Position numbers and translations under genes: made by a program. Below are positions 28,095 through 49,039 of a DNA stretch of 64,000 bases, one piece after another; positions within the stretch are counted from its first letter, which is position 1, and each line of letters opens with the position of its first letter. The notes beneath the pieces were generated by a model. That model searched no databases, was not told where the DNA came from, and saw only the letters and a program-made list of their open reading frames with translations. The stretch is from an uncultured Chloroflexia bacterium (lineage in GTDB: Bacteria; Chloroflexota; UBA6077; JACCZL01), in the NCBI GenBank assembly GCA_963765765.1, contig CAVXYC010000023.1:1-64000 (forward strand), given 5' to 3'.

Positions 28095-28947
28095 TTACTT
28101 CGTACCGACCGCGACGATCACCTCGCCCGGACAGACGCAGCCTTCCGGCCCCTCGAATCGCCGCAGCTCCTCCTCCAGGTCGCGCACCACGTCGGCGCGC
28201 TCTGTCGGCGAGAGGTGCCCGATAGACGCGTTCAGGCTCGGGCTCGACTGGAAGGTGATCGCGGCAGCCTCAGCGGCACTCGCGAAGTGGCGCGACGCAT
28301 CCACGCGCTGCGTGCTGACATCTCGATAACCGGCGCTCCGCAGCGCCTCCTCCAGCCTCCGTGCGTCACTCAATGAGAAGATCGGCGCCTGCCGATTCTC
28401 GACTGCTTGTGGGTCGGCGTAGCGGCTGGCCACCGTGCGCGAGGCCATTTGAGTCTGGTTGCGCTCCATGGGTCCCCAGACAACGGCTGAGAAGCGACCG
28501 CCCGGCACGAGGACCCGCAGAATACCCGTAAGCGTGCGCTGGAGGTCGGGAACGAACATGAGCCCCAGCCTGGAGATCGCCGCGTCGAACGACTCGAGCG
28601 GGGAGATCGAGGTCGTTGGCATCCATCACGCGAGTCTCGAGATTGCCCAGCCCAGCTTCCCGAGCGGCCGCCTCGGCCTGTTGGAGCATGCTGGCCGAGA
28701 TGTCTGTCGCGAGTACTGAGCCCGTGGGACCTATCCGACGCAGCGCGAGCAGCGACTGCTCGCCGGTGCCCGCTGCAACATCGAGTACGCGATTGCCCAA
28801 TTTCAGGTCCGCAAGATCGAGCATCAGCTCGGTGGCAGGTCCGAGATATTGCGCCCGCTGCTCCTGCCCGAGGCTCCAGACACTAGCGCCCTCAGTGGAA
28901 ACGAAGAAGTTCTCAGCCGTCGTTTCGGCCGGTTTTTCCGCGGTCAT
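28095..28947 (-). CDS. Class I SAM-dependent methyltransferase (frameshift near 28600)
   Basis: VLDVAAGTGE motif I, TDISASML, MDA, FDAAISRLGLMF, RVLVPGGRF. Starts 45 bp after the stop of the last STAND gene. Confidence 0.88.
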
Positions 28948-28991
28948 GTGCTGCGCTCCTCTCGAACGGCAGCAATCAACGCCGCCAAGCT

Positions 28992-31900
28992 TCACTCGGC
29001 ACTGACGCCGAGCTCACGCTCGTCATGCTGCCACTTTACTCCATAGATTCGATGCGTTCCGTCGAGTCCCTTGAGCTCTACGTCACGAGCTTCGGTGAAT
29101 TCCGCCACGCCGGTACGCTCCGTGAGCTGCTTCAGCAGCGCCGAGACCAGGATCTCCCCGCCTAGCGCATGGTCCGCGATTCGCGCCGCGAGCACCACGT
29201 CGCGCCCATGGAAGTCGTCGGCATCCTCGCAGCGCCTCGCCTGTGTGCAGGCCCATGCGCACGCGGATGGGCGGATCGGCTTGCCGCGACGCAACCGCGC
29301 GCTGGATGGCCACCGCGCACTCCAGGGCTCGCGTGCGCTCTGAAAGCGAGCATAAAGCCGTCGCCCTGGCACTTCACCTCGAAGCCCTCGTGCGCCGAAC
29401 CTGCTCGCGGACGAGCGCATGGTGGGCGCGCAGGATGTCCAGCCAGCGCCGATCGCCCAGTCTACCGTAAGCCGGTGGAGTCTTCGATATCGGTGAAGAG
29501 CAAGGTGACGGTGCCATCGGGCGCGGCGTGCGGATGCAGATCGGGCGGCTCCCGAGCAACGGCCACGGTTACCGCATCGATGGACGTGCTTGGGCTGATA
29601 GCGTCGATGCCCTGAAGCTGGAGCTTGCGGCGCAGTGCCCGTTCCAGCGCTGGTTGCATGCGCATATCCCGCAGCTCCGCGATGGCCCGGTCGAGGTGCT
29701 CGAGCGCCTCGAGCCGCTCCTCGGGGTAGTGGTCCAGGAGCAGCTCGGCCAGCTGCAGATGCGCGAGTGCGATTTCGGGACGGAAGCGCACCTGCGCGCA
29801 CACCTCCAGGGCCTGCTCGATAGAATTCCCGTGCCTGCTCCGCCTCGCCCAGCAGCGCGGCCGCGTCGCCCAGGAGGCGGGCAAAGCTGCACGCACCAGC
29901 ATCGGTGCGCAGGGATGCGACGCCGAGCGGCGTCAGGCGCCGAGCCAGGGCACGGGGTCTCCCGGTCGCCCCCCGAGGATCGCGGCCTCGAACAGGTTGA
30001 TAAGGACGTGGAGACCCGATTCGTCGTCGTCGGCGCCGATGTCGCCGAACCGCTCGCGGATGGCCCGTGGCCTCGTCGTGGCGCCCCAGGTGCGCCAGGC
30101 ACATCGCCCGGGCCGACTGCGCCGGCGGCCCGGGTCCCCGAAGCTTCCATACGGCCTCGGCGGCCCGGCCCAGGTGGATCAGGGCCCTTGCCCATTGGAA
30201 GCGGTTAGGGTCTTCGCCGACGCCCAACTCGTCAGCCGCGCGCCGCGGCCGCCTCGACGCGGCCAGCGCGTCCTCGAGCCGCCCGTCAAGCAACGACAAG
30301 TCCACGGACGGCGACATGGCCACCACGGCAAGGGTCGCGTCCCGCGTGCGCTCGGCAAGCTCCGCCAGCTCGCCGCCAGATCTCCTCGCGCTCGCGCCCG
30401 GTCGCCCCGCTCCAACAGCACGCTGCCACGAACCGAAGGCAGAGACCCAGGTCGCCCGAGCGTGCCCCGTGGCGCGGGCGCCGCAGCACCTCCTCGGCAA
30501 GCTGGTCGACCGTCTCGCGGTCGCGCAGGGCGAGGAACGGAGTCCGTAAGCCGCGGCCACGAAGAACGCCGGTCATCCTCGAGCTCGTGCGCCCGCTCCA
30601 CCGCTCGCCGCAGGAAGGGTGAGCGACCGTCGGACCGGCGCCGGCCACCATATGCGACATGGCCAGCCGCACGTCGGCGTACACCGGGCCGCGGTTTCCG
30701 CCCGCGGAGCGGTCGGCCCGGGCCAGCCACTCCGGGCGCTCAGGGAACCGCCAGACCCGCGGGCCTGCGCCGCCATAAGATCGCACGAGCGCCTCGAGGG
30801 CGATAACGGCGGCGCGCGCCGCCCGCGATGAGTCGCCCAGACGCTTCGGCCAGCGCGAACGCTTCGGGAGTCGCCTCGGTGGCCGCCCGGCGTGGCTCCT
30901 CCGATGGCAGCATCGCTTCGCCCAGGGCCAGCAGTAGGTCGCACCGCTTCTCTCGATGTCTGAGTCCAGCACGGCCTGCACCTGGATGGCCTGCTCCAGG
31001 TGTCGGCCGCCTCCCCGTGGGCGTAGACGCCCATCGCCCGCTCGGCCGCCAGCTCACTGTAATGACCGCCTTGGCCAGATCAGCCGGGTCGGTCGAGTGG
31101 GAGAAATGCTCGGCCAGCTCGGCGGCGTGCTCCTCCAGCCGGCTCGCGTACTGCGCCTCCAGCGCCCGCGCCACCTGCTGGTGCAGTCGCAGTCGCCGCG
31201 GCGCGATCAGCTCCTCGTAGAGCGTCTGGCGGAAGAAGGCGTGGGTGAACCGATAACGAATCGCCCCGGCCGGGCCTGCTCTTGCAGCACGCCCACCCGC
31301 AGCGCCTCCTCCAGGGCGTCCACGAGCGCGTCCTCTCGAGAGGTCGGCCACCCGGCGAAGTATCTCCAGGTCGAAGTCCCGCCCGATGACCGCCGCGATC
31401 GCGAGCACGCGGTTGCATCCGCGGACAGGCGTGATAGGCGCTTGCCGATGACGTCCCGCAAGCCCTCGGGGATACCGGCGTCCGGCTCGCCGCCGTCGGT
31501 GCGCACCCAGCGGCCGCCCTCGCGCACCACGATGCCCTCCTCCACCAGGTAGCGCAGCACCTCCTGGACAAAGAGCGGGTTGCCCTCGGTCTGGCGATGG
31601 ATCGCCTCGGCCCGCGCCCAGGGCACGTCCTGACCGCGGATCGGTTCATCATCCGATGCACTTCGTCCACGGTGAGCCCGCGCAGCGAGCGCGGACGAAC
31701 GCCGCCGATCCGCCGCAGCTCGGCCAGCGCCGCCGAGAGCGGATGCGCGCGATCCACCTCCACATCCCGATACGTCCCGACGACGAGTAGGCGTGCGCCG
31801 GAGAGATTGCGGGACAGGTGCTGGAGCAGATCGAGCGTGCCGCGATCGGCCCAGTGGAGGTCCTCGAGCACGAGCACCAGGGGCTGGATGGTCGCGGCGT

Positions 31901-33426
31901 TGCGCAGAAAGCCGACAAGCGCCTCAAACAGTCGCCAGCGCTCCTCTTCCGGATCGCCGCCGAGCGGCCGCGGCTCAATGGCGACGCGCTCGCGGACCTC
32001 GGAGACGATGCGCGCCACATCGCCCGCGCCCGAGCCCAGCTCGGCTTCAGCGCCTCGGCGTCCGGGCCAGGACATACGTGCGCAGGGCTTCGACAAAGGC
32101 GAGATACGGCAAGGAGAGCGAGCCCTCCTCGTAGCAATGGCCGACCAGCGTGCGCCCCCACGCACCGCGGCGTAGGTGGCCAATTGCTCGCACAGGGCGG
32201 TCTTGCCGATGCCCGGTTCGCCGACCACCATGACCAGCCAGCCCTGACCGGAAGGGCTCGTCAAACGCGGCCTGGAGCTGGCGCAGCTCGCTTCGCGCCC
32301 GACGAAGGTCGGCCGGTAGAGTGGGGGCGTCGTCAACCGGCGAAGGCTGCGTGCGGCTGACGGTCGCCGCGCCACGGTCGATAGGTTGATCGCCGCGAGC
32401 GCCTGGCAGCACCTCGATTGCCGAGCGGGCGCTTGGCCGGTTCCTTCTCCAGAAGCGCAGAATCAGCGACTCAGTCCCGGCGGACAGTCCGGGCCGATGC
32501 CAGGAGGGCGCTACGGGCGGCGTGTTCAAGTGCTGGGTGATGATGGCCACGCTCTCATCGCCCACGAACGGCGGCCGGCCACACACCAGCTCGTAGAGCA
32601 CGCAGCCCAGCGCGTAGAGATCGAGCGCGCGTCGACCGACCACCGATGGCCTGCTCCGGGGCCATGTACGAGACGGTGCCGATCATCATCCCCGGCTGGG
32701 TATGGCGCGTCTGGTCCAGGGCCACGGCCAGACCGAAGTCGCCGAGCTTGGCCATGCCCTCCGCGGCTCAGCCAGATGTTGCCCGGCTTCAGATCGCGGT
32801 GGATCGATGTCTCGGGCATGGGCATGCTCCAGTGCCTGGCACAGCTCCTGTCCAAGATCCAACACCTGCGCGATGGGCAGGCGATGATCGGGCGCGTTTT
32901 GAAGAAGGTCGGTCAAGGTCGCCCGCCGGCATCAGCTCAGTGACGAGATAGGGTTGGCCCTGCTCCTCACCGAGGTCCAACACGGCGACGATATTCGGGT
33001 GGGAGCCCAGCCGGCCCATGGCCCGGGCCTCGCGGCGCACGCGCTGCCGGCCGGCTCATCCAGGCCCTCGGTCTTGATCAGGGCCAAGGCGACCTCACGG
33101 TCCAACAGGGTGTCGTGCGCGCGGTAGACCCGCTTCTTGCCGCCCTCGCCCAGCAGCTCCCGCACCTGGTAGCGCCCATTGGCGAAGGTTGGATATTGGC
33201 GTCGCGTGGGGCGGTCCAACGGGAGAGGGCTCGTGCCGCACGGCGGCTGAGACCGACGATCCGAGTGCCCGCTGCGCGGTCAGAGAACTGGCGCGTCCGA
33301 ATTTTCGGGGTCGAGAGCTGGGGCTTCGGCGCGCTCCTTTACCACGGCACCAATCTCGCTGTCGAGTGCCGCATCGGCCTCGTCGAGCAGCGCGTCGATC
33401 TGCCGCTGGATCCGCTCACTGGGCAT
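28992..33426 (-). CDS. Kinase-STAND ATPase-TPR-like-class III cyclase protein, paralog 1 (heavily frameshifted)
   Basis: [18 protein letters not shown] start, [29 protein letters not shown], Walker A GEPGIGKT, Walker [24 protein letters not shown]...[41 protein letters not shown]. Confidence 0.85.
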
Positions 33427-36400
33427 TGTGCATCTCGACTTCCGCATCATGACCAGGCCACGCTAACGCCATGCGTGAGCCGTCGAGGCCCTTGAGCTCT
33501 ACCTGCCGCCCCTCGTCAAACCGCACGTCAGCGCGGCTTTCGGTGAGCTCCTTCAGCAGCGCCGACACCAGAATCTCCCCGCCCCAGTGCCTGGTCCGCG
33601 ATGCGCGCGGCCAGCACCACATCGCGCCCGTGGAAGTCGTCGGCGTCTCGCAGCGCCTCGCCGGTATGCAGGCCCATGCGCACGCGAATTGCCGGCTCCG
33701 AATGGGCTTCGGTCACTGCCCGTTGGATAGCAATCGCGCACTCGAGTGCCCGACGCGCGCTCTGGAATGCCAGCATGAAGCCGTCGCCCTGGCACTTCAC
33801 TTCAAACCCACCGTGCGTCTGCACTTCCTTGCGCACCAGAGCGTGGTGGGTTCGCAGCACATCCAGCCAGCGCTGGTCGCCGAGCTCTAGCGTTAGGCCG
33901 GTGGAATTTTCGATATCGGTGAACAGCAGCGTCACGGTGCCATCGGGTGCGGCGTGCGAGGCGAGGCTCGGCCGCTCCGACTCCAGCACATGGCTGAGTG
34001 CGTCGATCGAGGTGCTCGGGCTGGACTCGGATAGACCCTGGAGCTGCAGCTTTCTACGCAGCGACCGCTCCAGGTAGCTCGTCATCTTCATGTCGCGGAG
34101 CTCACCGATCGCAAAGTCGAGATGGGCCACGCCCTCGGCCTTGAGCTCGTCAGGAGTGAGCGGACGACTGCCGTCCTCGGTTCTGAGAGCTGATGGCCGA
34201 TCGCTGACGGCCTCGTCCAGCAGCAGCTCCGCCAGCTCCAGGCGGCACAGCGCCAGCTCCGGCCGGTGGCGGCCATGCGTGCAGGCAGCGATCCCCTGCT
34301 GGTAATACGCTCGCGCCTTCGCGGGCTGGGCCAGGAGGCGCGCCGCGCCGCCCAGGTCACGGCCCAGGCAGTTGGTGATCGAGGGCTCGGTGAAAAGCAG
34401 ATCGGCCAGGGGCGCCAGCTTCGGCTCGATCATCGCCACGGCCTGCGTGTGGCCCGCGGCCACGGCGGCCTCCAGCAGGTAGCGGAGCAGGGTGGCGGCG
34501 GTGGTGTCGTTCGGGTCGCTCAGGTCCCGCGCGGCCAGGAACTGGTCGATGATCGCGGTGGCTTCGGCGATGCGGCCGGCGTGGGCCAGGTAGATCGCCT
34601 GCTGCGCCGCGAAGGCGCCCCCGGTGGCCCACAGGTTGGCGGGCGTCGGGATGCTAGCCAGGACCTCCGCGGGGCGTCCCAGGTAGAGCAGGGCGCGGCG
34701 GCGGGCGCGGCCCGCGGCCTGCCGACCCAGCCCGGCGCTGCCGGCCTGCTCCCCGAGCCGCTGTGCGGCGTCGGCCAGCTCCAGCGCCCGCCCGAGCGCC
34801 CCGTCCCAGGTGGCCAGGACCGCCCGAAATTCCAGATCCAGGATCCGGGCGGCGGGCTCGTGGCTGCGGGCCGCCGCGGACTCCACGGCGCGCGCGATGG
34901 CTTCGGCGCGTTCGCGGTCCCCCCAGGTCAGGAACGCGCCGCGCCATCCCCCCATCCCGCCCCCAGGGGTCGCGAGGAGGGCGTCCCCCGCGCCCATCCC
35001 GTCTGCCCCATCCTGGCTGAAGCGCAGGTCCCAGATGAGCTGGGCCGCCTCCAGGCGATGGGCGTGCTCCGAGGGGGTGGCGGTGGCGCCGTTAGGCCAC
35101 GTGGCCGGCCGCCGAGAGCTGGGCCTCCCGATCGCCGAGCTCGCGCGCCAGCTCGAACGCCTGCCGCTCCATGCGCCACGATTCGTAATGCCGCCCCGCG
35201 TCCCGCAGTGCCAACGCGAGCCACAGATCCGCGTGCACGCGGTCCACCGTCCCCGGGGCGGCATGCCGATCCGCCCGCTCGACCCACTCCCGGTGGCGCT
35301 CGCTGCCCAGCCCGCGCGGTGACGCCGCCGAACGTCGCCGAGGGCGATCATGGCGAGCTGGCACGCGGCCACGGCCCGGTGCGCGTCGTGCAGCGTCTCG
35401 GCCAGGGCGAAGGCCTCCTCCGCCACGGACGTGAACACCCGCTCCGACTCGCCGGACGGGATCAGCGCCCGACACAGCGCCAGCAGCAGGTCGCAGCGTC
35501 GATCGGCATCGTCGGGATCCAGCACCTCCTGGGCTTCCAGCGCCCGCTCCAGGTGCCGCGCCGCCTCGCCGTAGGCATAGACGCCCATCGCCCGCCGGGC
35601 CGCCAGCTCGCCGTAGCGCACCGCCTTGCCCAGGTCGTCGGGGTCGCTGGAGTTGGCGAAGTGCTCGGCCAGCTCGGCAGCATGCTCGTCCACCCGCCGG
35701 CCGTAGACCCGCTCCAGCGCCCGGCCCACCTGCTGGTGCCAGCGGATGCGCCGCGCGGCGAAGATCTCCTCATAGAGCGTCTGGCGGAAGAAGGCGTGCA
35801 TGAAGCGGAACGCGAGACCCCCGCCGCCGGGGCTCCTGCGCTCCTCGATGATCGCCCGCGCCTGGGCCTCCTCCAGAGCCGCGATCACCGCCTCCTCGGG
35901 CCGGTCGGCCACCTGCTGCAGCGCGTCCAGGCGAAAGTCCCGCCCGATCACGGCCGCGATGGTCAGCACCTGGTTGGTCTCCGGACGCAGCCGGCTCAGG
36001 CGCTTGCCAATCACGTCCCGCAGCCCCTCCGGAATCCCGGCGTCGGCCTCGCCGCCGTCGGCCCGCACCCATTGCCCGCCCTCCCGGACGACGATCCCTT
36101 CCTCGACCAGGTAGCGCAGCACCTCCTGGACGAACAGCGGGTTGCCCTCGGTCTGGCGGTGGATGGCCTCGGCGCGGCCCCAGGGCACCTCCTGGCCGCG
36201 GATCGCCCGCATCATCCGGTGCACCTCGTCCACGGTCAGGCCACGCAGGGCCACACGGGCGAAGGGGGTGGTCCGGCGCAGCTCGGCCAGGGCCGCGCTC
36301 AGCGGGTGGGCGCGGTCCACCTCGACGTCGCGGTAGGTGCCCGACCACCAGCAGGCGGCTGCCCCTCGAGGCTGCGGCTAGACGTGCTGGAGCAGGTCCA

Positions 36401-37993
36401 GCGTGCCGCGATCGGCCCAGTGCAGGTCCTCCAGCACCAGCACCAGCGGCTGCATCGTGGACGCGGTGCGCAGGAAGCCGGTCACCGCCTCCAGCAGGCG
36501 CCAGCGGTCCTCCTCGGCATCGCCGCTCGGCGGGCGCGGCTCCACCGGCGACCCGCTCGCGCACCTCGGAGACGATGCGCGCAACGTCCCCGGCGCCGCT
36601 GCCCAGGGCCGTCGTCAGCGCCTCGGGCTCCTGGCCGAGCACGTAGCCGCGCAGCGCCTCGACGAACGGCAGGTACGGCAGGCTCAAGCGAGCCTTCCTC
36701 GTAGCAGTGGCCCACCAGCGTCGTGCCGCCGCGCACCGCGGCGTAGGTGGCCAGCTGCTCGCACAGGGCGGTCTTGCCGATGCCCGGCTCGCCCACGACC
36801 ATGACCATCCCGCCCTGGCCCGAGAGCGCGGCGTCGTACGCCGGGCTGAGCTGGCGCAGCTCCGCTTCGCGGCCGACGAAGGTCTCGCGGTAGAGCGGGC
36901 CGGGCTCCGATGACCGGCGGGGACTCGGGCTCGGGGGACCCGGTCGCATGACCGCTCCGTGCGGAGTCGATCGCCGGCGAGCGCGATCAGCACCTCGCCG
37001 GCGGAGGCGGGCCGATTGGACGGATCTTTCTCCAGCAGACGCAGGATCAACGTCTCCAGGCCGGTGGGCAATCGGGCCGATGCCAGGTGGGGGCCACCGG
37101 CGGCGTGTTGAGGTGCTGGGTGATGATGGCCACCGATTCGTCGCCCACGAAGGGCGGCCGCCCGCAGACCAGCTCGTACAGCACGCAGCCGAGGGCGTAC
37201 AGATCTGCGCGCGCATCAACGAGACCTCCGATGGCCTGCTCGGGTGCCATGTAGCTGACCGTGCCGATCATCATCCCGGGCTGGGTATGGCGCGTCTGGT
37301 CCAGCGCCACAGCCAGGCCGAAGTCGCCCAGCTTGGCCGTGCCGTCATCCGTGAGCCAGACGTTGCCGGGCTTAAGATCGCGGTGGATGAGGCTTCGTGG
37401 GCGTGGGCGTGCTCCAGCGCCTGACAGAACTGTTCCTAGTACAAGCGCCTGCGCGATCGGCAGGCGATGCTCGGGGCCGCGTCCAGGCAGACTGTGAGGT
37501 CGCCCCCGGCCATGAGCTCGGTGACGAGATACGGCTGGCCGTGCTCCTCGCCGAGGTCGAGGACCGCGACGATGTGCGGATGGGCGCCGAGGCGGCCCAT
37601 GGCCCGGGCTTCCCGGCGCACGCGCTGGCGGCCGGCCTCATCCAGCCCCTCGGTCTTGATCAGGGCGAAGGCGACGTCGCGATCGAGCAACGTGTCATGG
37701 GCGAGATAGACGCGCTTCTTGCCGCCTTCGCCGAGCAGCTCTTGCACCTGATAGCGGCCATTCGCGAACGAGCGTGGGCATGTGCGGCGGCTGTGTGGGA
37801 CAATCTGCGGTCCGATGGAATCCGCTGCTGCGGGCTCGCGCACTGCCGCCGTCAGGAACTCGGGCATCCACTTGCTCGGGTCGAGCCGCGAGGACCGCGT
37901 CGCAGCACTCGGACGCGGCCCAGTCGTGACGATCCAAGGCCGCTCGGCTTCATCGAGCAGAGGTCGATCCGCGCTGAACCGCCCACTGCGCAT
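33416..37993 (-). CDS. Kinase-STAND ATPase-TPR-like-class III cyclase protein, paralog 2 (frameshifted)
   Basis: Same motif order across ORFs 37436-37993, 37047-37310, 36482-37219, 36378-36584, 33528-36320 and 33416-33622. The stop overlaps the start of paralog 1. Confidence 0.87.
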
Positions 37994-38090
37994 CGGGCTA
38001 GCCGCTTTCTATCCGCCCGATCGCGTCGGAAGACCTGATGTCGCCATCTAGCCCTGGATGGACGCGCTGTACGCCCACTGGCCATTCTCG

Positions 38091-41000
38091 TCAAGTCACA
38101 CGCCTGAAAGACGCCGTGCCGTCGGCGATCCGCGGTGAGCACGCTTCGCGGCCATCATCGAATTGAGCTCGCGCGTCACTCGACCAGGCCGCGCAGCAGC
38201 TCGGAGACGAGGATCTCGCCACCCTGGGCCTGGTCGGCGATGCGCGCGGCCAGGACCACGTCCTGCCGTGGAAGTCGTCGGCTTCTTTCAGCGCTTCGCC
38301 AGTATGCAGTCCGATGCGCACGTCGAATCGGCGAGTCTGGGTATGACGTATTCCCGGCTTCGACGGCCCGCTGAATGGCCACCGCGCAGTCCAGGGCCCG
38401 ACGGGCGCTCTGAAGGCCAGCATGAAGCCATCGCCCTGGCACTTGACCTCGAACCCACTGTGATCTGCACCTGCTCGCGAACGAGCGCGTGATGTGCGCG
38501 CAAGATCTCCAGCCAGCGCTGATCGCCCAGTCGCACGGTTAAGCCGGTGGAGTCTTCGATGTCCGTGAAGAGCAGCGTGACGGTGCCATCGGGCGCGGCG
38601 TGGGGTCTGAAGGTCGGGTCGCTCCGCTGGCGACCGCCAGGCTACCGCGTCGATGGAGGTGCTGGGCGAGACGGAATCGACGCCCTGGAGCTGGAGCTTG
38701 CGGCGGAGGGCCCGTTCCAGCATGGGCTGCATCTTCATCTCGCGCAGCTCGGCGATGGCGAAGTCGAGGTGCTCGAATGGCAGCATTTCGCTCGTCCGGA
38801 TAGTGATCCAGGAGCAGCTCGGCCAGATGGACCTGGATGATGGCGATCTCGGGGCGGAATCGCACCTTTGCACACGCCTCGAGGGCCTGCGTATAGAAGG
38901 AACGCGCGTCATCATACTGACCGAGTTGCGCGGCGGCGTCACCCACCAATCGGCCGATGCTGACATGCATCTCAAACGACCCCACGCGGCTAATCCAAAG
39001 TGAGTTCGAGAGCGGCGCAAATCGAGGCAGGAGCGCGCTCAGGGTTTCCCGGTCGGCACCGAGGATGCTCGCCTGGAGCAAGTACAAGAGAAAGCCTATT
39101 GCAGTTTCGTCGTGGTCTGATCCGATATCACCGAACCGCTCACGATAGGCCCGAGCCTCACTATGTCGAGCCAGCAACGCTAAGATGTGTGCCGTTCTCG
39201 CATTGCTGGCACGCCCCGGCATTTGTTGGTATGCCTCCCGCAATTCTTCGAGGACCGCATTCGGTACCCCGCCCGAGGTACAGGAGTGCCTGGCCGCTCA
39301 TTTCGTGTGGCGTAAACACCCCGACGCCCAGCTCCAGCGCCATCGCGGCGCCTGATTCGTATAGTGTGACCGCCTTTTCGAGACGCCCATCGACGAACGC
39401 CAGGAGGGCGGACGTGGTCAGGGCATGCGCTCGCAAACTTCGATCCTGCGTGTGATCGGCGAGCAGTGTGAGCTCACGCCACAACGTCTCCGCTTGGTGG
39501 CGCCGTCCGCTACTGAGCAGCTCGATACCCCCGGAATAGAGGCACCAGCCCAGGTCAGTCGCCCGAGCACCGTGGTGCGGGCGCCGCAGCACTTCCAGCG
39601 CCAGGCCCGTCACCATCTCACGATCCCGCAAAGCCTGAAGATTCCGAAACGCCCATCCCACGGCGGCGAAGACCACCGAGTCATCATTTAGGCTGAGGGC
39701 GCCTTCCACGGCGCGGCGCAGGAACACGTGCGCCGCCGGGCGGCCGGCACCGATCTCCGCGAGCCCCTGGTAAATATCGGCATAGACGCGTTGGGCGGTC
39801 CTCGTCTGTGCGTGGCGATCAGCACGGTCAGCCCAGTCTTGAAAGCTCTGGGCGGTCGCAGTTCGCAGGCCGGCGCCCGTCGAGCGAATCAAGGATTCCA
39901 ACGCCTGGATAGCCGCGCGGGCGGCGCGGTCTGCGTCGCCGAGCGCTTCGGCCAACGCGAACGCCTCGGGCGCGACCGTGGCACTCACGCGCAGCGGGTC
40001 TTCCAGCGGCAGCATCGCCTCGCCCAGCGCCAGCAGCAGATCGCAGCGCTTCGAATGGTCATCCGGGTCCAGCACCGCCTGGACTTCCAGCGCCTGCTCC
40101 AGGTGCCGGGCCGCCTCGCCGTAGGCGTACACGCTCAGCGCCCGCTGTGCCGCCAGCTCCCCGTACCGAATGGCCTTCTCCAGATCACTCGGCATCCGAG
40201 GAGTGCGCGAAGTGCTCGGCCAACTCCGCCGCGTGCTCTTCCGGTCGCCGCGCGTGGACGTCCTCCAAGGCCCGCGCCACCTGCTGATGCAGCCGGATGC
40301 GCCGCGGCGCGCTCAGCTCCTCGTACAGCGTCTGGCGGAAGAAGGCATGGGTGAAGCGATAGGTCACCGCGCCGGCCGGCCCGCTCGCTCCTCCACCACC
40401 GCCCGATCGCGCGCCTCGTCCAGGGCGCTGTACAGCTCCTCCTCGGGCAGCGCGGCCACGCGCTCCAGCACGTCCAGGCGGAACTCCCGGCCCATCACCG
40501 AGGCCACGCTCAGCACGCGATTGCCCAGCTCGCCCAGGCGTGACAGTCGCTTGCCGATGACATCGCGCAGTCCCTCGGGGATACCGGCCTCGGGATCGCT
40601 GCCATCGGTGCGCACCCACTGCCCGCCCTCGCGCACCACCAGGCCTTCCTCCACCAGGTAGCGCAGCACCTCCTGGACGAACAGCGGGTTGCCCTCGGTC
40701 TGGCGATGGATCGCCTCGGCCCGACTCCAGGGCACCTCCTGTCCGCGGATCAGGTTCATCATCCGATGCACCTCATCCACGGTCAGCCCGCGCAGCGGGA
40801 TGCGGCTGAAGGCGCCGCTGCGCCGCAGCTCGGCCAGCGCCGAGGAGAGCGGGTGGGCGCGATCCACCTCCACGTCCCGATACGTGCCCACGATCAGCAG
40901 TCGCGCCCCGGCCAGGCTGCGGCTCACGTGCTGGAGCAGATCCAGTGTCCCGCGATCGGCCTCGTGCAGGTCTTCCAGGACGATCAGCAGCGGGCGCACC

Positions 41001-42553
41001 TGACTGGCGTTGCGCAGGAAGCCGGTCACCGCCTGCGAGCAAGCGCCAGCGCTCCTCCTCCGGATCGCCCGGGTGGGCGCTCCGGACGGCGATCCGATCG
41101 CGCACTTCGGAGACGATGCGGGCCACGTCCCCGGCGCCGGTGCCGAGATCGCTGGTGAGATCTCCGGATCGCGCGCCAGGACATAGCTGCGCATGGCCTC
41201 GACGAACGGGAGATAGGGCAGGGAGAGCGAGCCTTCCTCGTAGCAGTGGCCCACCAGCGCCGTGCCACCGCGCACCGCGACGTAGGTGGCGAGCTGCTCG
41301 CACAGGCTGGTCTTGCCGATGCCCGGCTCGCCGACGACCATGACCAGGCTGCCCTGCCCGGAGATCGCCCCGTCGAAGGCCGCTTCGAGCTGCTTGCGCT
41401 CGGGCTCGCGGCCCACAAAGGTCGGCCGGTAGAGCGCGGGCTCGATCGACGGAGCGGGAGGCTCGTATCCGAGGCGGTGCACCATTGGCGTCAGGTCAAT
41501 CGCGCTCAGCGCCTGGAGCACTTCGCCGGCCGAGGCGGGCCGTTTCTCGGGATCCTTCTCCAGCAGCCGCAGGATGAGCGCTTCCAGGGCCGGGGGCACA
41601 TCCGGGCGATGCCAGGCGGGGTCGACGGGCGGGGTATTCAGATGCTGGCCGATGATGGCCACGGCTTCGTCGCCGACGAACGGCGGGCGGCCGCAGACCA
41701 GCTCGTAGAGCACGCAGCCCAACGCGTAGAGATCCGACCGTCCATCGACGGCGCCGCCCGTGGCTTGTTCGGGGGCCATGTAGGCCATCGTTCCGACCAT
41801 CATGCCCGGCTGGGTGTGGCGGGTTTGGTCTAATGCCACCGCCAGACCGAAGTCGCCCAGCTTGGCGGTGCCATCGGCGGTCAGCCAGATGTTGCCCGGC
41901 TTGAGGTCGCGGTGAATGACCTGGTGGTCGTGGGCATGCGCCAGCGCCTGGCAAACCTGGCCGGCGATCGTTACGGCTGCTTCAATGGGCAACCGGTGCT
42001 CCGGGGCATCCGCGAGCCGAGTCGCCAGGTCACCACCGGCCACGAGCTGGGAGACGAGATACGGTTGCCCGTCCTGCTCGCCGAGATCGAGCACGGAGAC
42101 GATGTGCGGATGATCGCCGAGGCGGCCCATCGCCCGGGCCTCGCTGCCAATCCGCAGGCCACCGGCGTTATCGAGCCCTTCCGTCTTGATCAGGGCAAAC
42201 GCGACATCGCGGTCGAGCAGGGTGTCATGGGCGAGGTAGACGCGCTTCTTCCCGCCCTCGCCGAGGAGCCTGGCGACCCGGTAACGACCGTTGGCGAAAC
42301 TCGTCGGAGCGGCCGACTTCGGGCCATTGTTTAGGGTCGAGGCGGGCCCATCAAGGGTTGGGGGAGTGGCGGCGTTGGTCGCCAGTGCGCGTTCGGCAGC
42401 CGCCAGGTAGGAGTGCGCATCCGCGCTGTCCGGGTCAAGGGCCAGAACATTCTGGGCCCGATCGCGGACCAAGCCCCAGTTCGACTCGCCAATCCCCGCT
42501 TCCGCTTCGTCGAGCAGCCGATCGATCTGCCGCTGGATGCGCTCACTGGGCAT
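38091..42553 (-). CDS. Kinase-STAND ATPase-TPR-like-class III cyclase protein, paralog 3 (frameshifted)
   Basis: ORF 40364-42562 carries an intact kinase ([29 protein letters not shown]) and ATPase ([18 protein letters not shown]). It continues through 39161-40195 and 38539-39243 to the cyclase at about 38100-38590. Confidence 0.88.
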
Positions 42554-42706
42554 GATCACCAACCCTCGAGCGCCGGAAGCTCGGACGCTCCATCACGTAA
42601 CGTGCACGCCGGAGTAGCGCCGGTCGGGATTTCTCGCCTCGCTCGGGCGTGCCTACGCCAGGGGGCATCTTCCCTGTGCTCCGAACGGCTGACGCCGGTC
42701 CGCGCG

Positions 42707-45700
42707 TCATGCCCACTGCACCTGATGTATTTGATAGAGACCGTCCAGGCCTTTCAGCTCGACCTCGCGAACGGCGTCGAATCGGAGATCGCCCCGGCCT
42801 TCGAGCAGGCTCCTGAGCACGGCCGAGACGAGGATCTCGCCACCGCGGGCCTGGTCGGCGATGCGGGCGGCCAGCACCACGTCGCGTCCGTGGAAGTCGT
42901 CCGCGTCCCGCAATGCCTCGCCGGTGTGCAGGCCCATCCGTACGCGGATCGGCACATCGATGTTCTGTGTCGCCACGGAGCGCTGGATCGCCACCGCGCA
43001 GTCCAGCGCTCGGCGCGCGCTATTGAAGGCCAGCATGAAGCCGTCGCCCTGGCACTTGACCTCGAAGCCGCCGTGATGCTGAACTTCTCGGCGGACCAGC
43101 GCGTGGTGGGCACGAAGCAGCTCGAGCCAGCGTTGGTCTCCCAGACGCACGGTGAGATCGGTGGAGCCCTCGATGTCGGTGAACAGGATGGTCACGGTCC
43201 CGTCCGGAGCGGCGTGACGACGGAGGTCGGGCAGCTCCGCATGCAGCGCCCGGGCCACCGCGTCGATGGATGTCCCGGGCGGGACGGTATCGACGCCCTG
43301 GAGCTGGAGCTTGCGGCGCAGCGCCCGCTCGAGAGCGGGCTGCATTTTCATCTCTCGGCATTCATCAATGGCGAAATCCAGGTGCTCCAGCGCCTCGGCC
43401 CGCTCGTCAGGGTACTGGTCCAGGAGCAGCTCGGCCAGCCCCAGGCGGCTTAGAGCAAGCTCAGGGCGACAGCGAACCCGCTCGACACGCCTCAATCGCG
43501 CGACGGTACCAGGCCACAGCTTTTTCAGGTTCGCCCAGCAACGCCGCCGCAGCCCCGAGGTGGCGATGTAGGCAGATGATGCCGGCACCCGCCTCTGCAA
43601 ACGCCGGTCCCTGGTCGAGCTCCGCGGCGAGAACCTCGACCAGCGCGTTGTCTTCGAGCAGAATCGCTGCTTCGAGGCTTCGGGTGAGGTAGGAAACGAG
43701 GTCCGAAGCGAAACGGGGTCTCCCAGACTCCGACAGTTTCGCCCCATCGTGCACCACAAGCTCCTGAAGCTGTCGACGCGCCTGTTCAAGGTCTCCAGCG
43801 AGCGCGTGCGCCAGGGCAAGGGAGAAATTCACCCCGGTTGCCAGCCTCGACCCGCTCAGCCAATCTCGCCATTCAGCGGGACGTCCTAGTAATGGAAGCA
43901 CCGTGCCGCACCGCGCGGCAGCCATTCCGATTCCGACCTGCGGAGAGCCAAGCTCGTGAGCCTGTTCTCGCAGTCGATACCCCAGATCGGCCGCCGCTTC
44001 GAGCCGGCCGTCCAGCGCGGCGACGACCGCCTGGTAACTCAACGCCATGAGCTGAAGCCATGCATCCCGACTCCGGTCGGCCAGCTCCGCAAGCTCACGC
44101 CAGGCTCGCTCCGCGCCATCCCGGTCACCCTTCGTCAGCAGCGCAGCGCCGCAGAACTCCAGGATCTGTCCGTGTGTGCGGACGGATATCCGCTCGCGCG
44201 GGCGCGCCAGCAGCTCATCGGCCAGGGCGACCGCCTCGCGCCACTGCCGCGGTGTCATCTCGAACCGAATCACCTGCCAGGCAGCCGCTGCAAAGAGCTC
44301 CGCGTCCCCCAGATCACGCGCGAGCCCCATCGCCCGGCGGAGCAGGATGACCCCATCCTCGGTGCGCAGCTGAACAATGCGGAGTCGCCCCATCGCCACA
44401 TCGGCGTACGCCCGCTCCGGGCTACCGGCGGCGGCGGTCGCATCCGCCAGCTCGGCCCACTTCTGCCATGCCGGGGCACTGGGCGCCGTCGAGGATAATC
44501 TCCGGTGAATTGCCTCCAGCGCCAGCCGCGACACCCGTCCCACTCGCGTGGTATCACCGTCCTGCTCGGCCAGCGCCAGCGCCTGGGGCGCGATCTCGTC
44601 GCTCACCCGCTGCGGCTCTCCGACCGGCATTAACGCTTCGCCCAATGCCAGGAGCAGATCGTACCGCCTGAGCTTGTCATCCGGGTCCAGTACCGCCTGG
44701 ACATCCAGCGCCTGGTCCAGGTGCCGGGCCGCCTCGCCGTAGGCATAGACGCTCATCGCGCGGCTGGCCGCTAGCTCCCCGTAGTGAATGGCCTTCTGGA
44801 GATCCTCAGGATCCGATGAATGGGCGAAGTGCTCGGCCAGCTCGGGGGCGTGCTCGTCGAGTCGCCGCGCGTGGATTTCCTCCAGTGCCCGTGCCACCTG
44901 CTGGTGCCAGCGGATGCGCCGCGGCGGGCTCAGCTCCTCGTACAGGGTCTGGCGGAAGAAGGCATGCGTAAAATGGTAGGCCACCGCGGCGCCGAGACCC
45001 GTCCGGACCTCCACCACCGCCCGCTCGGTGGCCTCCTCCAGCGCCTCGATCACCGCCTCTTCGGGTAGGCTGCTGACCCGCTGGAGCACGTCCAGACGAA
45101 AGTCCCGGCCGATCACCGCCGCCACGCTGAGCACCTGGTTCGTCGACTCGGACAGCCGTGAGAGCCGCTTGCCGATGACGTCCCGCAGTCCCTCGGGGAT
45201 GTCCTCTCCGGTGCCAATCTGCGGCACATAGCGGTCGCCCTGGCGAACGACCAGGCCGGCTTCCACCAGGTAGCGCAGCACCTCCTGGATGAACAGCGGG
45301 TTGCCCTCCGTTTGTCGGTGGACCGCCTCTGCCTGGGCCCACGAGACCTCATGCCCGCGCAGGACGGTGTACAGCCGATGCACCTCATCGACGGTCAACC
45401 CGCGCAGCGGCACACGCAGGAAGGTCTGGATACGCCGCAGCTCGGCCAGGGTGGAGGACAGCGGATGGCCGCGGTCCACCTCCACGTCGCGGTAGGTTCC
45501 GACCACCAGGAGCCGAGCGCCCTCCAGGTTGCGGGCCAGGTGCACCAACAGGTCCAGCGATCCGTGATCCGCATCGTGCAGGTCTTCCAGCACCAGTAGC
45601 AGCGGTTGGACCAGGGAGGCATTGCGCAGGAAACCTGTCACCGCCTGCAATAGGCGCCAGCGCTGCTCGCCCGGATCGCCGGTATCGGACAGCTCCACCT

Positions 45701-47145
45701 CGACCCGGTCTCGCACCTCACTCACGATTCGAGCCACTTCCCCGGCGCCGGTGCCCAGATCACCCTTGAGCCCTCGGGCTCGCGGGCCAGCACGTAGGAG
45801 CGCATGGCTTCCACGAAGGGCAGATACGGCAGGGAGAGCGAGCCCTCCTCGTAGCAATGGCCGACCAGGCACTTCCCGCCGCGCAGGACGGCGTAGGTGG
45901 CCAATTGCTCGGTTAGGCTGGTCTTGCCGATGCCGGGCTCACCCACGACCATGGCCAGGCCGCCCTGGCCGGAAAGCGCAGCGTCAAAGGCGGCCTGGAG
46001 CTGCTTGAGCTCCGACTTCGCGTCCGACGAAGGCGCGGCGGTAGAGCGGGTTATCCGTCGTCGGTGGCGTCCGGCGCGGGGGCAACGCCTTCCGTTCCCT
46101 GGACCGACGGGGCTGGGGTCGGATCGATCGAGTCCAGCGCCTGGCGCACCTCGGTGGCCGAAGCGGGCCGCTTGCTCGGAACCTTCTCCAGCAGCCGCAG
46201 GATGAGCGCCTCGAGGGCCGCGGGGCAGTCCGGCCGGTGCCAGGACGGGGCCACCGGCGGGGTGTTGAGATGCTGGCCGATGATCGCCACGGCGTCATCG
46301 CCCACGAAGGGCGGTCGGCCGCCGACGAGCTCGTAGAGCACGCAACCGAGAGCGTACAGGTCGCTTTGGGGGCGTGACCTCGGCACCCGTGGCCTGCTCA
46401 GGGGCCATGGCGCTGACCGTGCCGATCATCATCCCCGGCTGGGTGTGGCGCGTCTGATCCAGCGCCACGGCCAGCCCGAAGTCGCCGAGCTTGGCCGTGC
46501 CGTCGTCGGTCGAGCCAGATGTTGCCCGGCTTGAGGTCGCGGTGGATCAGGTCGCGGGCGTGGGCGTGCTCCAGGGCCCGGCAGAGCTGCTGGCCGAGCT
46601 CTAGAACCTGGGGGATCGGCAGGCGATGCTCGGGAGCGGCTGCAGGAGCGTGGTGAGATCTCCACCGGGCATGAGCTCGGTGACCAGATACGGCTGGCCC
46701 TGGTCCTCGCCCAGGTCGAGGACACTCACGATATTCGGATGCGAGCCCAATCGCCCCATGGCGCGGGCCTCGCGGCGGACCCGCTCGCGGCCGACCTGGT
46801 CCAGCCCGTCGGTCTTGATCAGCGCGAACGCGACCTCGCGATCAAGCAGCGTGTCATGCGCCCGGTAGACGCGCTTCTTGCCGCCCTCGCCGAGGAGCTC
46901 GCGCGTCTCATACCGCCCGCCGACAAACGCTCGGGGTGACGTCGCGGCGCTTATCCGGGACGGAGGGTCGCTCGCCAGTCTGGCGAGGCGTTTCAGCCAG
47001 TGACGACGCCGCACGATCCACAGAATCTGGCATGGGGGCTGACACTGCTGCCGCACGATCCGCACACGCGACTCAATGTCGCGCCGCACCCCTCGCAGAA
47101 CGCGGCTTCCTGCGGAGGCTCGGTTCCACAGGCGGCGCAGCGCAT
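42707..47145 (-). CDS. Double zinc ribbon-kinase-STAND ATPase-TPR-like-class III cyclase protein, paralog 4 (frameshifted)
   Basis: MRCAACG...FCEGCG...CGSCG...FCGSCG double zinc ribbon, kinase at about 46100-46900, [18 protein letters not shown], and a clean cyclase ILFTDIEGST...EVKCQGDG...[12 protein letters not shown]...ELKGL in ORF 42707-43819. Confidence 0.88.
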
Positions 47146-47282
47146 GGCTTTCCTCAATGAAGGACGCCTGGTCATCCCGTTGGATGGCTGGAATCCGATA
47201 GTACACCCGATACGGCACGCGCGAAAGTGACACGTGGGCCGAAAAGCGAGGAAGCCCCGGATGCGGGGTGTGCCAGTGCGAC

Positions 47283-47733
47283 TTACGGGCTGAAGGGAGT
47301 GCCTCCGCGGCCGAGGCCCCGAGTGGAGTCAACCATTCCCGGGTGCCAGGCCGGCTGGACGTCGATGTACAGCTCCACGTTGTTGCCGTCGGGATCGTCA
47401 AAGAACGCCGAGTGGGAGACGCCGCCATGATCCACGACTCTGCGTCGGCCGAACGCCTTTGCCTTCGAGGTCCGATAGGGCGTTGCGCAGCTCATCGTCG
47501 GTTGTGCCGATCCGAAAGGCCAGGTGGTTCAATCCGAGTCGTCCGCGCTCGGCATCAGGGCCGACCTCGATCAGCAGCAGCTCATGGTGCGTGCGGCCGG
47601 CTGCGCCAGCCAGGAAAGCCGCGCGGCCCATCTCACCAGTTATGTGCAAACCGAGCCGGTCGCGATAGAAATCAACTGAATCCTCGAGATTGCGCACATT
47701 GAGCACGACGTGTCCGAGCTCTTGAATCTGCAT
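47283..47733 (-). CDS. VOC (glyoxalase/extradiol dioxygenase fold) family protein, frameshift near 47445
   Basis: ELGHVVLNVRNLEDSVDFYRDRLG, THHELLL, GLNHLAF, then DHGGVSHSAFFDDPDGNNVELY. Confidence 0.85.
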
Positions 47734-47781
47734 ACTGATCCTTCCTCAATCCAGGGCGACCGCTAGAGCCGCAGCATCCAG

Positions 47782-47858
47782 AGTTAACAGTCGACAGCCA
47801 GCAGTCTATGATTCGAGCACCGGGCTGGCTCCGACTGTTAACTGTCGACTGTCAAGCT
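47782..47858. repeat. Intergenic inverted repeat built from acagtYR-like heptamers
   Basis: agttaacagtcgacagccagcagtc (47782-47806) pairs imperfectly with gactgttaactgtcgactgtcaagct (47833-47858). Confidence 0.65.
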
Positions 47859-47860
47859 AA

Positions 47861-49039
47861 CTAGTGCTCGTCACCCCACTCGCCGTCCTGCGTCGGCCCG
47901 AGCTCGCCGGTGCAGTACGGCGAGAGCGCGCGCATTCGGCACGGCACACCATGCCGCTTGAGCTCATCCTCAAACAATGGCATGTACGTCCGGGTTCTCG
48001 TCCTCGTACTCCGTCTGGATGCCACCCTGTTTCACGCTGAGATCGGCAGTGTTCCGGTCCGTGGGCATATCGTCCCACCGGCCCGAGACGTAGCGACGAG
48101 ACCTGTTCACACCCACAACCAGGTACGTGGCAGACGATTCCGACACATTAAAGTGCTGGTGGTACCACAGGCCCGGGCCCGCGCCACTCAGGAAGATGCT
48201 GCCCGGGTTTCCAGTCATAACGCACGGCTGGCTCATCATCGCCACGCTGGGTGGTGGTGTAGCCCTCACCGTTCAATATGAACAGGTGCGCGCCCGACGG
48301 GCTGCGGTGGCCCTTCTTGTAGCAGACCGGCCTGGAAACGCGAGATGTGCGAGTTGATCGTGCCGCCGGCCAGCAGGAAGAATGCGTTGGTACCGCCGCC
48401 CCCACGCTCCTTCCACTCCCACAGCTTCATTCGGCGTACATCCGGCTCGAAGTTCGTCTCCCAGAGACGACCCCGCCAGAGCTTTCCCTCTTTCCCAAAG
48501 TAGTCCGATTCACCCGAGTACCGGTCGGTAAAGGCGTAGGGATTGTCGAAGAGGAATCCTTCGTTGTGGAACTGCCGCATCATTGAGGGCAGGTTGGTCA
48601 CCGAGAAGTACCGAACTGGATCCTGGCCACTGCCATTGTGTGACTGGAAATAGGCGTTGGTCGGGATGGCGAAGAAGCTGCCCTCGGACCACTCGAACGT
48701 CTGCTTGGTGTCCTCATCGAACCAGACCGTGGTCGCGCCGCGGCCGCTCAAGATGTAGATCGCCTCATCGTAGATGTGGTGCTCAGGGACGGTGGATTGT
48801 CCTGGTGGGATCTCCACGATATGGATGTCACTGCTATCGTCGCCATCGAGATAGGCGACGGCGCCCTTGACGCCCTTGCGTGGCCAATCCCCTAGCTCCG
48901 CGGCCCGCATATCCGGGATATACACGCCGTCGATGATCGGCACGCCTTCGTTCTTCAGCCAATCATCGTAGGGATCGACCTTTTTCATAAGCGGCGCTTC
49001 GGCCGCGGCACCGGTGTAGGTCAGGGTGTTCACTGCCAT
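47861..49039 (-). CDS. Bicupin protein (gentisate 1,2-dioxygenase-like fold), frameshifted
   Basis: EIPPGQSTVPEHHIYDEAIYILSGRGATTVW (cupin 1), KKGHR...GAHLFILNGEGY and WYHQHFN (cupin 2), IEYEDE-like C-terminal motif TEYEDENP. Confidence 0.8.

Follow-up and report, generated by a model that had tools for sequence, protein, structure and literature searches.

A bacterial kinase clade with a WNK-type lysine layout, found in a tandem kinase-STAND-cyclase array of a soil Chloroflexota-like bacterium

Four kinase genes of a soil Chloroflexota-like bacterium, which lie in a stretch of 64,000 nucleotides (the window), have no lysine at the usual place in strand beta3 and carry one in the glycine-rich loop, as eukaryotic WNK kinases do. 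Are they working kinases, and does the likeness to WNK reflect common descent? WNK is treated in one account as the sole functional family of protein kinases without a beta3 lysine (PMC1821047), and an independent relocation with all other catalytic residues kept would be a clear-cut example of convergence in the rewiring of an active site. Taken as a whole, the evidence is best explained by an active kinase with a relocated lysine, part of a cytoplasmic STAND-cyclase protein, that arose apart from WNK (probability about 0.7).

Four kinase genes in tandem and their broken frames

The array was delimited by tblastn with two intact homologues, P0015 and P0022, and consists of four tandem paralogs of ~4.4-4.6 kb each, all on the minus strand.

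28995..47145, minus strand: array of kinase-STAND-TPR-cyclase genes, copies A, B, C, and D
42707..47145, minus strand: copy A; all three frames used, longest open stretch 825 aa (45938-43464)
38094..42553, minus strand: copy B; kinase ORF 42592-40367 (742 aa, P0001), with breaks farther downstream
33419..38008, minus strand: copy C; several frame changes, N-terminal limit approximate
28995..33415, minus strand: copy D; most fragmented of the four, N-terminal limit approximate
46814..46894, minus strand: 27-residue motif of copy A; loop Lys codon 46876-46874, beta3 Ala codon 46825-46823
42185..42265, minus strand: the same motif in copy B; loop Lys codon 42247-42245, beta3 Ala codon 42196-42194
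37655..37735, minus strand: the same motif in copy C; loop Lys codon 37717-37715, beta3 Ala codon 37666-37664
33073..33153, minus strand: the same motif in copy D; loop Lys codon 33135-33133, beta3 Ala codon 33084-33082
41486..42307, minus strand: kinase domain of copy B (274 aa), the only unbroken one of the four, used as query and for the fold
41846..41914, minus strand: catalytic loop HRDLKPGN (41914-41891) and DFG (41854-41846) of copy B

Six-frame translation and a codon check bore out the original prediction that all four copies share the motif [10 protein letters not shown][LR]AHDTLLDR[DE]VA[FL]ALIK and, with it, a WNK-type layout: the third position of the glycine loop is lysine (codon AAG in every copy), beta3 has no lysine, and HRD, DFG, APE, and the alphaC glutamate are kept. 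The motif ends in VAFALIK in copies A, B, and C, and in VALALIK in copy D. The catalytic motifs [11 protein letters not shown] and APE were found in all four copies, in different reading frames in A, C, and D. In the numbering of the copy B kinase domain, the residues concerned are Lys20, Lys21, Ala38, Lys41, Glu56, HRD 132-134, Asn139, and DFG 152-154. The motif is not a chance match, because it recurs in two extra copies with the same lysine layout on contig C20 of the same assembly, in 72 database domains, and in 112 of the 117 domains of a second set. The layout was also rightly held not to be a sequencing error, because a large clade conserves it.

Every window copy changes frame several times, and with all four broken in this way the window genes may fail to yield complete proteins. 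The breaks could mean that the four copies, as part of an array that once worked, are now decaying into pseudogenes, so that this genome retains the layout only as a relic. Besides the number of breaks per copy, this reading is favored by their density, which looks much higher in the array than in the flanks, by indel sites that fall outside homopolymers when the array is compared with a short contig, and by the three canonical kinases encoded elsewhere in the genome, which are unbroken. However, splits also affect genes in the flanks (GH15/TREH_N, a methyltransferase, a glyoxalase, and an SBP_bac_5 protein), which points to general indel errors in a metagenome-type assembly of 33 contigs. A short independent contig, 96% alike, has an extra base at 37065, with which the homology to P0015 runs in one frame across the break, and no catalytic motif is damaged in any of the four copies. 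We therefore regard decay as unlikely, though a serious alternative, and the frame breaks as probably assembly indels. When the five indels of one contig were applied, the frame was restored at a single break, the one near 37065; the next break coincides with the end of that contig. Homopolymer errors were rejected as the cause of the breaks, since the indel sites lie outside runs and the array is not enriched in runs. One sequencing run (share 0.07) gave short contigs that are 90-99% alike and come from relatives. The GC content of the array is 0.68-0.71, as compared with 0.612 for the genome.

Related genomes carry intact open frames of 1310-1358 aa with the motif, and the databases contain many full-length proteins of 1200-1500 aa.

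One clade with a displaced lysine

From 280 domain hits, less 44 partial ones, 237 aligned kinase domains were obtained, query included. The loop lysine is combined with alanine (64) or serine (9) in beta3 in 73 of them; 152 have the canonical beta3 lysine with Gly, Ala, Ser, or another residue in the loop, and the remaining 12 are degenerate in other ways. The two lysines were never found together (0/237). A kinase phylogeny, as had been suggested along with the original prediction, was built from the 237 domains (FastTree, LG+gamma); the 73 swapped domains are monophyletic with a support of 0.998 and no canonical member inside. On this tree, the lysine layout defines one bacterial clade with a single origin. 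After midpoint rooting, four domains from the bacterial-kinase search hits adjoin the clade, with weak support (0.615). The clade was seen mainly in metagenome genomes of Chloroflexota/Dehalococcoidia, and a scan of genome contigs, with 80 loci listed and most of them canonical, showed the swap in one (L011, from a Dehalococcoidia metagenome genome).

Within the clade, the loop lysine, the HRD aspartate, the catalytic-loop asparagine, and the DFG aspartate are each present in 73/73 domains, the alphaC glutamate and the HRD arginine in 72/73, and the activation-loop Thr165 in 66/73. The 112 swapped domains of the second set all keep the glutamate, the aspartate, the asparagine, the second aspartate, the phenylalanine of DFG, and Thr165 (112/112), although the two sets are mutually related and are not independent samples. 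As to the lysines of GGKK, both of which the original prediction had singled out, only the second is invariant (73/73); the first varies among K (30), R (26), S (6), Q (4), T (3), N (2), Y (1), and F (1).

Position of the lysine and probable catalytic competence

The copy B kinase matches the Pkinase profile PF00069 at 3.8e-46 (158.1 bits against a cut-off of 31.7), and its AlphaFold2 model has a mean pLDDT of 87. By sequence, the nearest solved relatives are PknB, StkP, PknE, and PknA (phmmer against PDB, E 8.6e-58 to 8.4e-46), and PknB is also the closest fold (TM 0.88). The profile, the bilobal fold, the HRD aspartate, the asparagine, the DFG aspartate, and the alphaC glutamate of Hanks-type kinases are all present, and only the VAIK lysine of beta3 is missing, with Ala in 64 and Ser in 9 of the 73 domains.

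In the phmmer alignment with PknB, no gap interrupts the stretch between the glycine loop and beta3, and GGKK pairs with GGMS and VAFA with VAVK. The second lysine of GGKK stands opposite the serine of GGMS, which is the third glycine-loop position, and the alanine of VAFA is aligned by HMMER with the catalytic lysine of both PknB and StkP. The model has beta1 at 9-17, beta2 at 21-28, beta3 at 33-40, and alphaC at 47-61, so that Lys21 opens beta2 and Ala38 lies inside beta3. From loop lysine to beta3 alanine there are 17 residues, as between G55 and K72 of PKA. In WNK, the positive charge was moved from position 72 to 55 (K233 of WNK1), and K233 is needed for catalysis (Kannan et al., 2007, PMC1821047). 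Judging from the WNK position given there, the second lysine of GGKK occupies the site of WNK1 K233 in beta2.

We propose that the ATP-anchoring lysine has moved from beta3, where Ala or Ser now stands in place of PKA K72, to the residue that opens beta2, the place of PKA G55. The loop lysine would cross the beta2-beta3 hairpin, passing above the small side chain of Ala or Ser, to reach the phosphates of ATP, and it may pair with the conserved alphaC glutamate as K233 does in WNK1. The kinase would then be active and controlled through its activation loop, rather than a pseudokinase.

A different lysine, that of LIK, might be the working one if a beta-bulge or a register shift brought it into place, and the loop lysines would then be accessory. 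The LIK position is K in 64, R in 8, and Q in 1 of the 73 domains, and K in 111 and R in 1 of the 112. It is thus basic in 72/73 clade members as compared with only 38/152 canonical relatives (K or R), and the LIK lysine therefore also appears to be under clade-specific constraint. However, it is not invariant, as Arg or Gln occurs in its place, whereas the loop lysine is found in 73/73 and 112/112 domains. Arginine is generally no substitute for the catalytic lysine. The alignment with PknB needs no gap and sets the LIK lysine opposite an arginine of PknB, three residues past the catalytic lysine; such a step along a strand would put it on the opposite face. Residue 40 is the last of beta3 in the model, which leaves Lys41 at the strand end in a block of lower confidence (41-50, mean pLDDT 68). 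A working LIK lysine is thus very improbable.

Alternatively, the swapped domain could be a pseudokinase that, without the beta3 lysine, transfers no phosphate and serves as a nucleotide-binding or scaffold module of a STAND protein. Absence of the VAIK lysine is the usual sequence rule for such a call, and bacterial pseudokinase families linked to predicted ATPases do exist, e.g., CP1 with COG3899 (PMC12599244). However, the described bacterial pseudokinase families, as far as their account goes, mostly lose the HRD aspartate and/or the DFG aspartate as well (bioRxiv 10.1101/2025.01.12.632604), whereas the swapped domains keep these residues, the asparagine, and the alphaC glutamate in the proportions given above, and their compensating lysine is invariant and sits at the WNK position. 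The family descriptions of ActPs1-3, GLW, CP1, DYD, and DLHK, so far as they extend, also set these families apart from the swapped domains, which have lost the VAIK lysine only. We consider a pseudokinase improbable. An active relocated-lysine kinase would show that automatic 'pseudokinase' calls in surveys of bacterial kinomes can err, and the swapped kinases would offer a simple soluble system in which the cost and benefit of the relocation could be studied, e.g., with reverse-swap mutants.

Likeness to WNK and the proteins around the kinase

The original prediction left it open whether a bacterial WNK-like configuration was convergent or homologous. Comparison of structures, which it had proposed, placed PknB nearer (VIA-align: Z 34.5, rmsd 1.8 over 257 residues, 38% identity) than WNK3 (PDB 5o2c: Z 27.3, 26% identity), which ranked 37th and was tied with many unrelated eukaryotic kinases. 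There was no WNK among the best 60 PDB sequence matches listed or among the top 50 Foldseek matches, though either absence is weak evidence. Because the domain is PknB-like by both sequence and fold, the relocated lysine looks like an independent bacterial reinvention, convergent with WNK, and the homologous half of the proposal falls away.

Like the swapped kinases, WNK1 and WNK3 have Lys at PKA position 55, a small non-Lys residue at position 72, the 17-residue spacing, and the alphaC glutamate, HRD, catalytic-loop asparagine, metal-binding aspartate, and APE. They share the position of the lysine, but the nearest relatives of the swapped kinases do not indicate common descent. WNK has Cys in beta3 (PMC12599244) where the swapped kinases have Ala or Ser, and DLG where they have DFG; the middle residue is Phe in 69, Leu in 3, and Tyr in 1 of the 73 domains, and Phe in 112/112. 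The swapped kinases are bacterial, and their partner domains are unlike those of WNK: a Pfam scan of P0022 and P0015 found zinc ribbon, kinase, AAA, TPR, and cyclase families only, with no WNK-type accessory (CCT-like) domain after the kinase.

Ion or osmotic regulation, which had also been suggested, gained no support. The swapped kinase could in principle be a WNK analogue in regulation too, the emptied beta3 site binding chloride or another anion with inhibitory effect and so passing the ionic or osmotic state on to cyclase output. The lysine layout is the same, a review considers that the odd placement of the lysine may allow chloride binding in WNK (PMC7606576), and the three members with Leu have a WNK-like DLG. 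However, in WNK1 the Leu369 of DLG is among the residues in contact with chloride, and autophosphorylation increased with the mutation L369F (PMC7606576). The swapped family carries precisely the phenylalanine that L369F introduces, so chloride sensing is unsupported. In addition, no transporter or osmotic gene linked to the array was found, and the accessory domain is missing from P0022 and P0015. Regulation by chloride is thus extremely unlikely. There is a very slim chance that, more broadly, bacteria have repeatedly placed the lysine in the loop as a way of freeing the beta3 site for a regulatory anion or small-ligand pocket, and that STAND-cyclase proteins are kinases gated by ions or metabolites and control cyclic-nucleotide output. 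If so, ligand-gated swapped kinases would be a bacterial functional counterpart of WNK signalling, beyond a look-alike.

Another relocation is known in CAK-chloro, where the positive charge moved from position 72 (Met) to 55 (Arg), according to PMC1821047. As described there, CAK-chloro is a choline/aminoglycoside-type subfamily on the small-molecule kinase-like branch, different from the swapped kinases; it has Arg rather than Lys, and its alphaC Glu is replaced by Phe, whereas the swapped kinases keep the glutamate.

The closest relatives PknB, StkP, PknA, and PknE resemble the swapped kinases in being RD kinases with an activation-loop threonine and RREA in alphaC. They have the canonical VAVK lysine with Gly, Ser, or Ala in the loop and are membrane receptor kinases, whereas the swapped kinase has a relocated lysine and belongs to a soluble STAND-cyclase fusion. 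This protein is cytoplasmic and consists, in order, of an optional double zinc ribbon, a Hanks-type Ser/Thr kinase, an AAA_16 STAND NTPase, TPR, and a class III nucleotidyl cyclase.

47008..47139, minus strand: double zinc ribbon, N-terminus of copy A (PF12773 DZR, 2.2e-11)
40889..41422, minus strand: AAA_16 STAND-type NTPase of copy B, Walker A GEPGIGKT (PF13191, 2e-28, residues 391-568 of P0001)
42746..43207, minus strand: predicted class III nucleotidyl cyclase, C-terminus of copy A (PF00211, 2.6e-18)

The AAA_16 domain scored 100.4 bits against a cut-off of 32.6, with Walker A present. As a guess, oligomerisation driven by the STAND module might gather the cyclase domains, with the kinase as input or feedback.

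In PknK-type proteins of Mycobacterium tuberculosis, a Hanks kinase is joined to an AAA domain and MalT-like TPR, and PknK carries the canonical lysine. The swapped protein shares this order, i.e., an N-terminal Hanks kinase followed by an AAA_16-type ATPase and MalT-like TPR, but ends in a cyclase that PknK is not known to have. The PknK family is described as having multiple linked domains (bioRxiv 10.1101/2025.01.12.632604). In the literature searched, no description of the present kinase-STAND-cyclase family was found, and the swap clade would mark an abundant, unstudied signalling protein of soil Chloroflexota. Among the best 25 PADLOC matches listed, those on the kinase region were generic kinase models only (PD-T4-6, mad6, MkoA, and PglW), and no cyclase or STAND defence model was among the 25.

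The cyclase itself scored 66.7 bits against a PF00211 cut-off of 21.9, and residues 20-203 of the 206-residue cyclase query matched the class III adenylyl cyclase Ma1120 of Mycobacterium avium (PDB 4wp3) with an E-value of 9.5e-45. Ma1120 is a small stand-alone cyclase, whereas here the domain closes a protein of ~1450 residues.

The tandem kinase-cyclase array

Six-frame translation of the window yielded four minus-strand occurrences of the motif [10 protein letters not shown][LR]AHDTLLDR[DE]VA[FL]ALIK, at the very coordinates of the original prediction. The sites fall one to each of four tandem paralogs of ~4.5 kb (copies A to D), delimited by ORFs and tblastn.

Paralogs of the array and their motif sites
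47145-42707, minus, copy A; motif site 46894-46814
42553-38094, minus, copy B; motif site 42265-42185
about 38008-33419, minus, copy C; motif site 37735-37655
about 33415-28995, minus, copy D; motif site 33153-33073

The readable pieces of these copies matched Pkinase, AAA_16, MalT-like TPR, and a C-terminal class III cyclase in Pfam, and copy A starts with an N-terminal double zinc ribbon (47008-47139), as do most database homologues. Copy B opens at 42553-42390 with a helical, unrelated segment ([18 protein letters not shown]...), and the same seems to hold for copy C, so that the paralogs differ in their N-terminal module. P0022 and P0015, two intact database homologues, showed the Pfam order DZR, Pkinase, AAA_16, TPR, with an additional C-terminal Guanylate_cyc domain in P0022; Ma1120 (PDB 4wp3; 9.5e-45) is a close match to the cyclase domain. 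Two further motif-bearing copies at the start of another contig of the same assembly (C20) bring the total to six. Family members are named at source as "protein kinase", from metagenome genomes of Dehalococcoidia or Chloroflexota, or as "serine/threonine protein kinase/class 3 adenylate cyclase". Judged by its relatives, the organism of the window would itself be Chloroflexota-like.

Position and conservation of the relocated lysine

The kinase domain of copy B (window 42307-41486, 274 aa), the only unbroken one among the window copies, served as the query. Its best PDB matches in phmmer were StkP (8.6e-58) and PknB (6e-52), then PknE and PknA; the best eukaryotic kinases in the same search reached about 1e-29. 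The alignment with PknB is ungapped between the glycine loop and beta3: GGKK aligns with GGMS, VAFA with VAVK, and the Lys of LIK with an Arg three residues past the catalytic Lys of PknB. The second Lys of GGKK (Lys21) therefore stands at position 55 of PKA numbering and the Ala (Ala38) at position 72, the beta3 site, which is residue 250 in WNK. An AlphaFold2 model of the domain, run on a 25-row alignment (mean pLDDT 87, pTM 0.86), has beta1 at 9-17, beta2 at 21-28, beta3 at 33-40, and alphaC at 47-61, which makes Lys21 the first residue of beta2 and puts Ala38 inside beta3; Lys41, the Lys of LIK, lies directly past beta3 within a lower-confidence block. According to the account of Kannan et al. 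(PMC1821047), the charge in WNK is shifted to position 55 (K233) and is required for catalysis there, and the beta3 residue of WNK is given as Cys (PMC12599244).

PknB was the top Foldseek match of the model (TM 0.88). Comparison with 48,161 chains by VIA-align gave Z 34.5 for PknB (rmsd 1.8, 257 aligned, 38% identity) and Z 32.1 for S. aureus PknB; WNK3 (5o2c) came at rank 37 (Z 27.3, rmsd 2.6, 257 aligned, 26% identity), level with many unrelated eukaryotic kinases.

A HMMER scan over 1.84 billion representatives supplied the best 150 proteins, in which 280 kinase-domain hits were re-detected; 44 not spanning query residues 16-200 were dropped, and the remaining 236 with the query made an alignment of 237 domains. 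The loop Lys occurs together with beta3 Ala (64) or Ser (9) in 73 of these, 152 have the canonical beta3 Lys (loop residue Gly in 107, Ala in 28, Ser in 11, other in 6), 12 are otherwise degenerate, and none has both lysines together. Within the swap group (the query plus 72 domains out of 71 proteins), the loop Lys, HRD-Asp, Asn, and DFG-Asp are each present in 73/73 domains, the alphaC Glu and HRD-Arg each in 72/73, the activation-loop Thr165 in 66/73, and DFG-Phe in 69/73 (Leu 3, Tyr 1), the three Leu members thus reading DLG as in WNK. The residue preceding the loop Lys is K30, R26, S6, Q4, T3, N2, Y1, F1. In a FastTree phylogeny (LG+gamma, query columns 5-269, midpoint rooted), all 73 swap domains formed a single clade with support 0.998 and zero canonical members within. 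A second set, drawn from the best 120 matches of a word-indexed search with P0022 (117 new proteins, 122 domain hits, 117 used), had the swap in 112/117 domains, with the Glu, Asp, Asn, Asp, Phe, and Thr165 kept in 112/112, the two counted sets being kin and not independent samples. The WNK-type active-site layout of the original prediction is thus borne out by the PknB alignment and by the covariation in the 237 domains. Judging from the equivalence with WNK1 K233, the unchanged 17-residue hairpin spacing, and this covariation, Lys21 would reach the ATP site.

The position three past beta3-72 is K64, R8, Q1 in the clade and K/R in only 38/152 canonical domains. The LIK Lys (window 42187-42185 and the paralogous codons) is accordingly K/R in 72/73 members, and its position is a second clade-specific constraint. 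The protein P0005 (3024 aa) has two tandem kinase domains with the relocated lysine in both. A locus of a Planctomycetaceae metagenome genome (L027, match at 1501) has a normal GGMG loop and VALAMLPA where VALK is expected; with neither the beta3 nor the loop lysine, this kinase is possibly an ordinary pseudokinase.

Relation to WNK and the chloride question

The swap clade has the same active-site layout as WNK but a different descent. Because sequence, fold, and tree all mark it as PknB-like, the relocation is convergent; of the two origins first proposed, convergent or homologous, only the former stands. In WNK1, as described in a review (PMC7606576), chloride is contacted by the Gly370 and Leu371 amides and by the side chains of Phe283, Leu299, Leu369, and Leu371, and L369F raises autophosphorylation. 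Chloride sensing fails this residue test in the swap family, where the residue equivalent to Leu369 is Phe in 69/73 domains of the first set and in 112/112 swap domains of the second. Array neighbours are methyltransferase, glyoxalase, cupin, ABC peptide-transport, and MFS transporter genes and a GH15 enzyme; genes for ion transport or osmotic functions are absent from the flanks. With this Phe and these neighbours, the earlier suggestion of ion or osmotic regulation is wrong or at least unsupported.

Among the papers listed by our full-text literature search, no description of a bacterial Hanks-type clade with a glycine-loop lysine turned up. The pattern is absent from the seven pseudokinase families described in the sections drawn on here of two recent bacterial kinase surveys (bioRxiv 10.1101/2025.01.12.632604; PMC12599244), where WNK is mentioned solely as a parallel from eukaryotes; the supplementary tables of these surveys could place the proteins elsewhere, e.g., in PknK. 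The most likely reading, at a probability of about 70%, is an active PknB-like kinase using a glycine-loop lysine within a STAND-cyclase signalling protein, which is testable with a handful of point mutants.

Frame breaks and distribution of the array

None of the four window copies reads in one frame. An open frame extends at most 825 aa in A, 742 aa in B, 949 aa in C, and 526 aa in D; homologues, by comparison, have 1200-1500 aa. With P0015 and P0022 as queries, tblastn required several frame changes per copy. Genes outside the array are split as well, so that indel errors seem general in this assembly (33 contigs, 91.8% completeness, 6.85% contamination).

Split genes outside the array
21948-23775, minus, GH15 plus TREH_N part
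28098-29013, minus, methyltransferase
47286-47745, minus, glyoxalase
53241-55026, minus, SBP_bac_5 binding protein

At 816-5828 (minus), successive open frames (GAF, GAF, HATPase_c, GAF) resemble the pieces of a single large GAF-rich sensor histidine kinase.

The density of breaks looks higher in the array than in its flanks, and breaks are absent from three canonical kinases located elsewhere in the genome. One soil-metagenome run yielded short contigs 90-99% alike to the array, among them a 293-base contig covering 36910-37198 with 11 substitutions, in which single bases are missing at 36941, 36947, 36965, and 36972 and one G is added behind 37065; none of these indel sites is a homopolymer. 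With the extra G, the P0015 homology spans the break in one frame (query 110-256 becoming 110-289), which mends one break, and the following break persists. Errors of the consensus in a repeat-rich region are, in our view, the probable cause of the breaks; that the copies are real pseudogenes is rather unlikely, though to be taken seriously. The layout is a property of the family whether the breaks are errors or pseudogenization.

A survey of 41 genomes, the window's own and 40 relatives (G006 enters only this tally), gave >60% identity matches in the window's own genome, in G001 of the same genus, and in G029, G018, G035, and G012 of another family of the same order. The motif was verified in the loci of G001, G029, G018, and G035, the G012 match resting on its identity of >60%; in G029 and G018 the frames run unbroken over 1310-1358 aa. 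From the remaining eight genomes of the family to which the window belongs came matches of 41-47% identity only, and the two inspected were both canonical. The GC of the array is 0.68-0.71 (window 28001-48000) versus 0.612 for the genome. Such a patchy distribution and composition would fit transfer, and the array could have been acquired horizontally.

In the soil-metagenome sequencing run X1, summed contig depth peaks (197-769) at 46288-46908, 36973-37593, 41320-41940, and 32626-33246, the conserved kinase segments, and many related genes of the kinase-cyclase family appear to be present in this soil sample.
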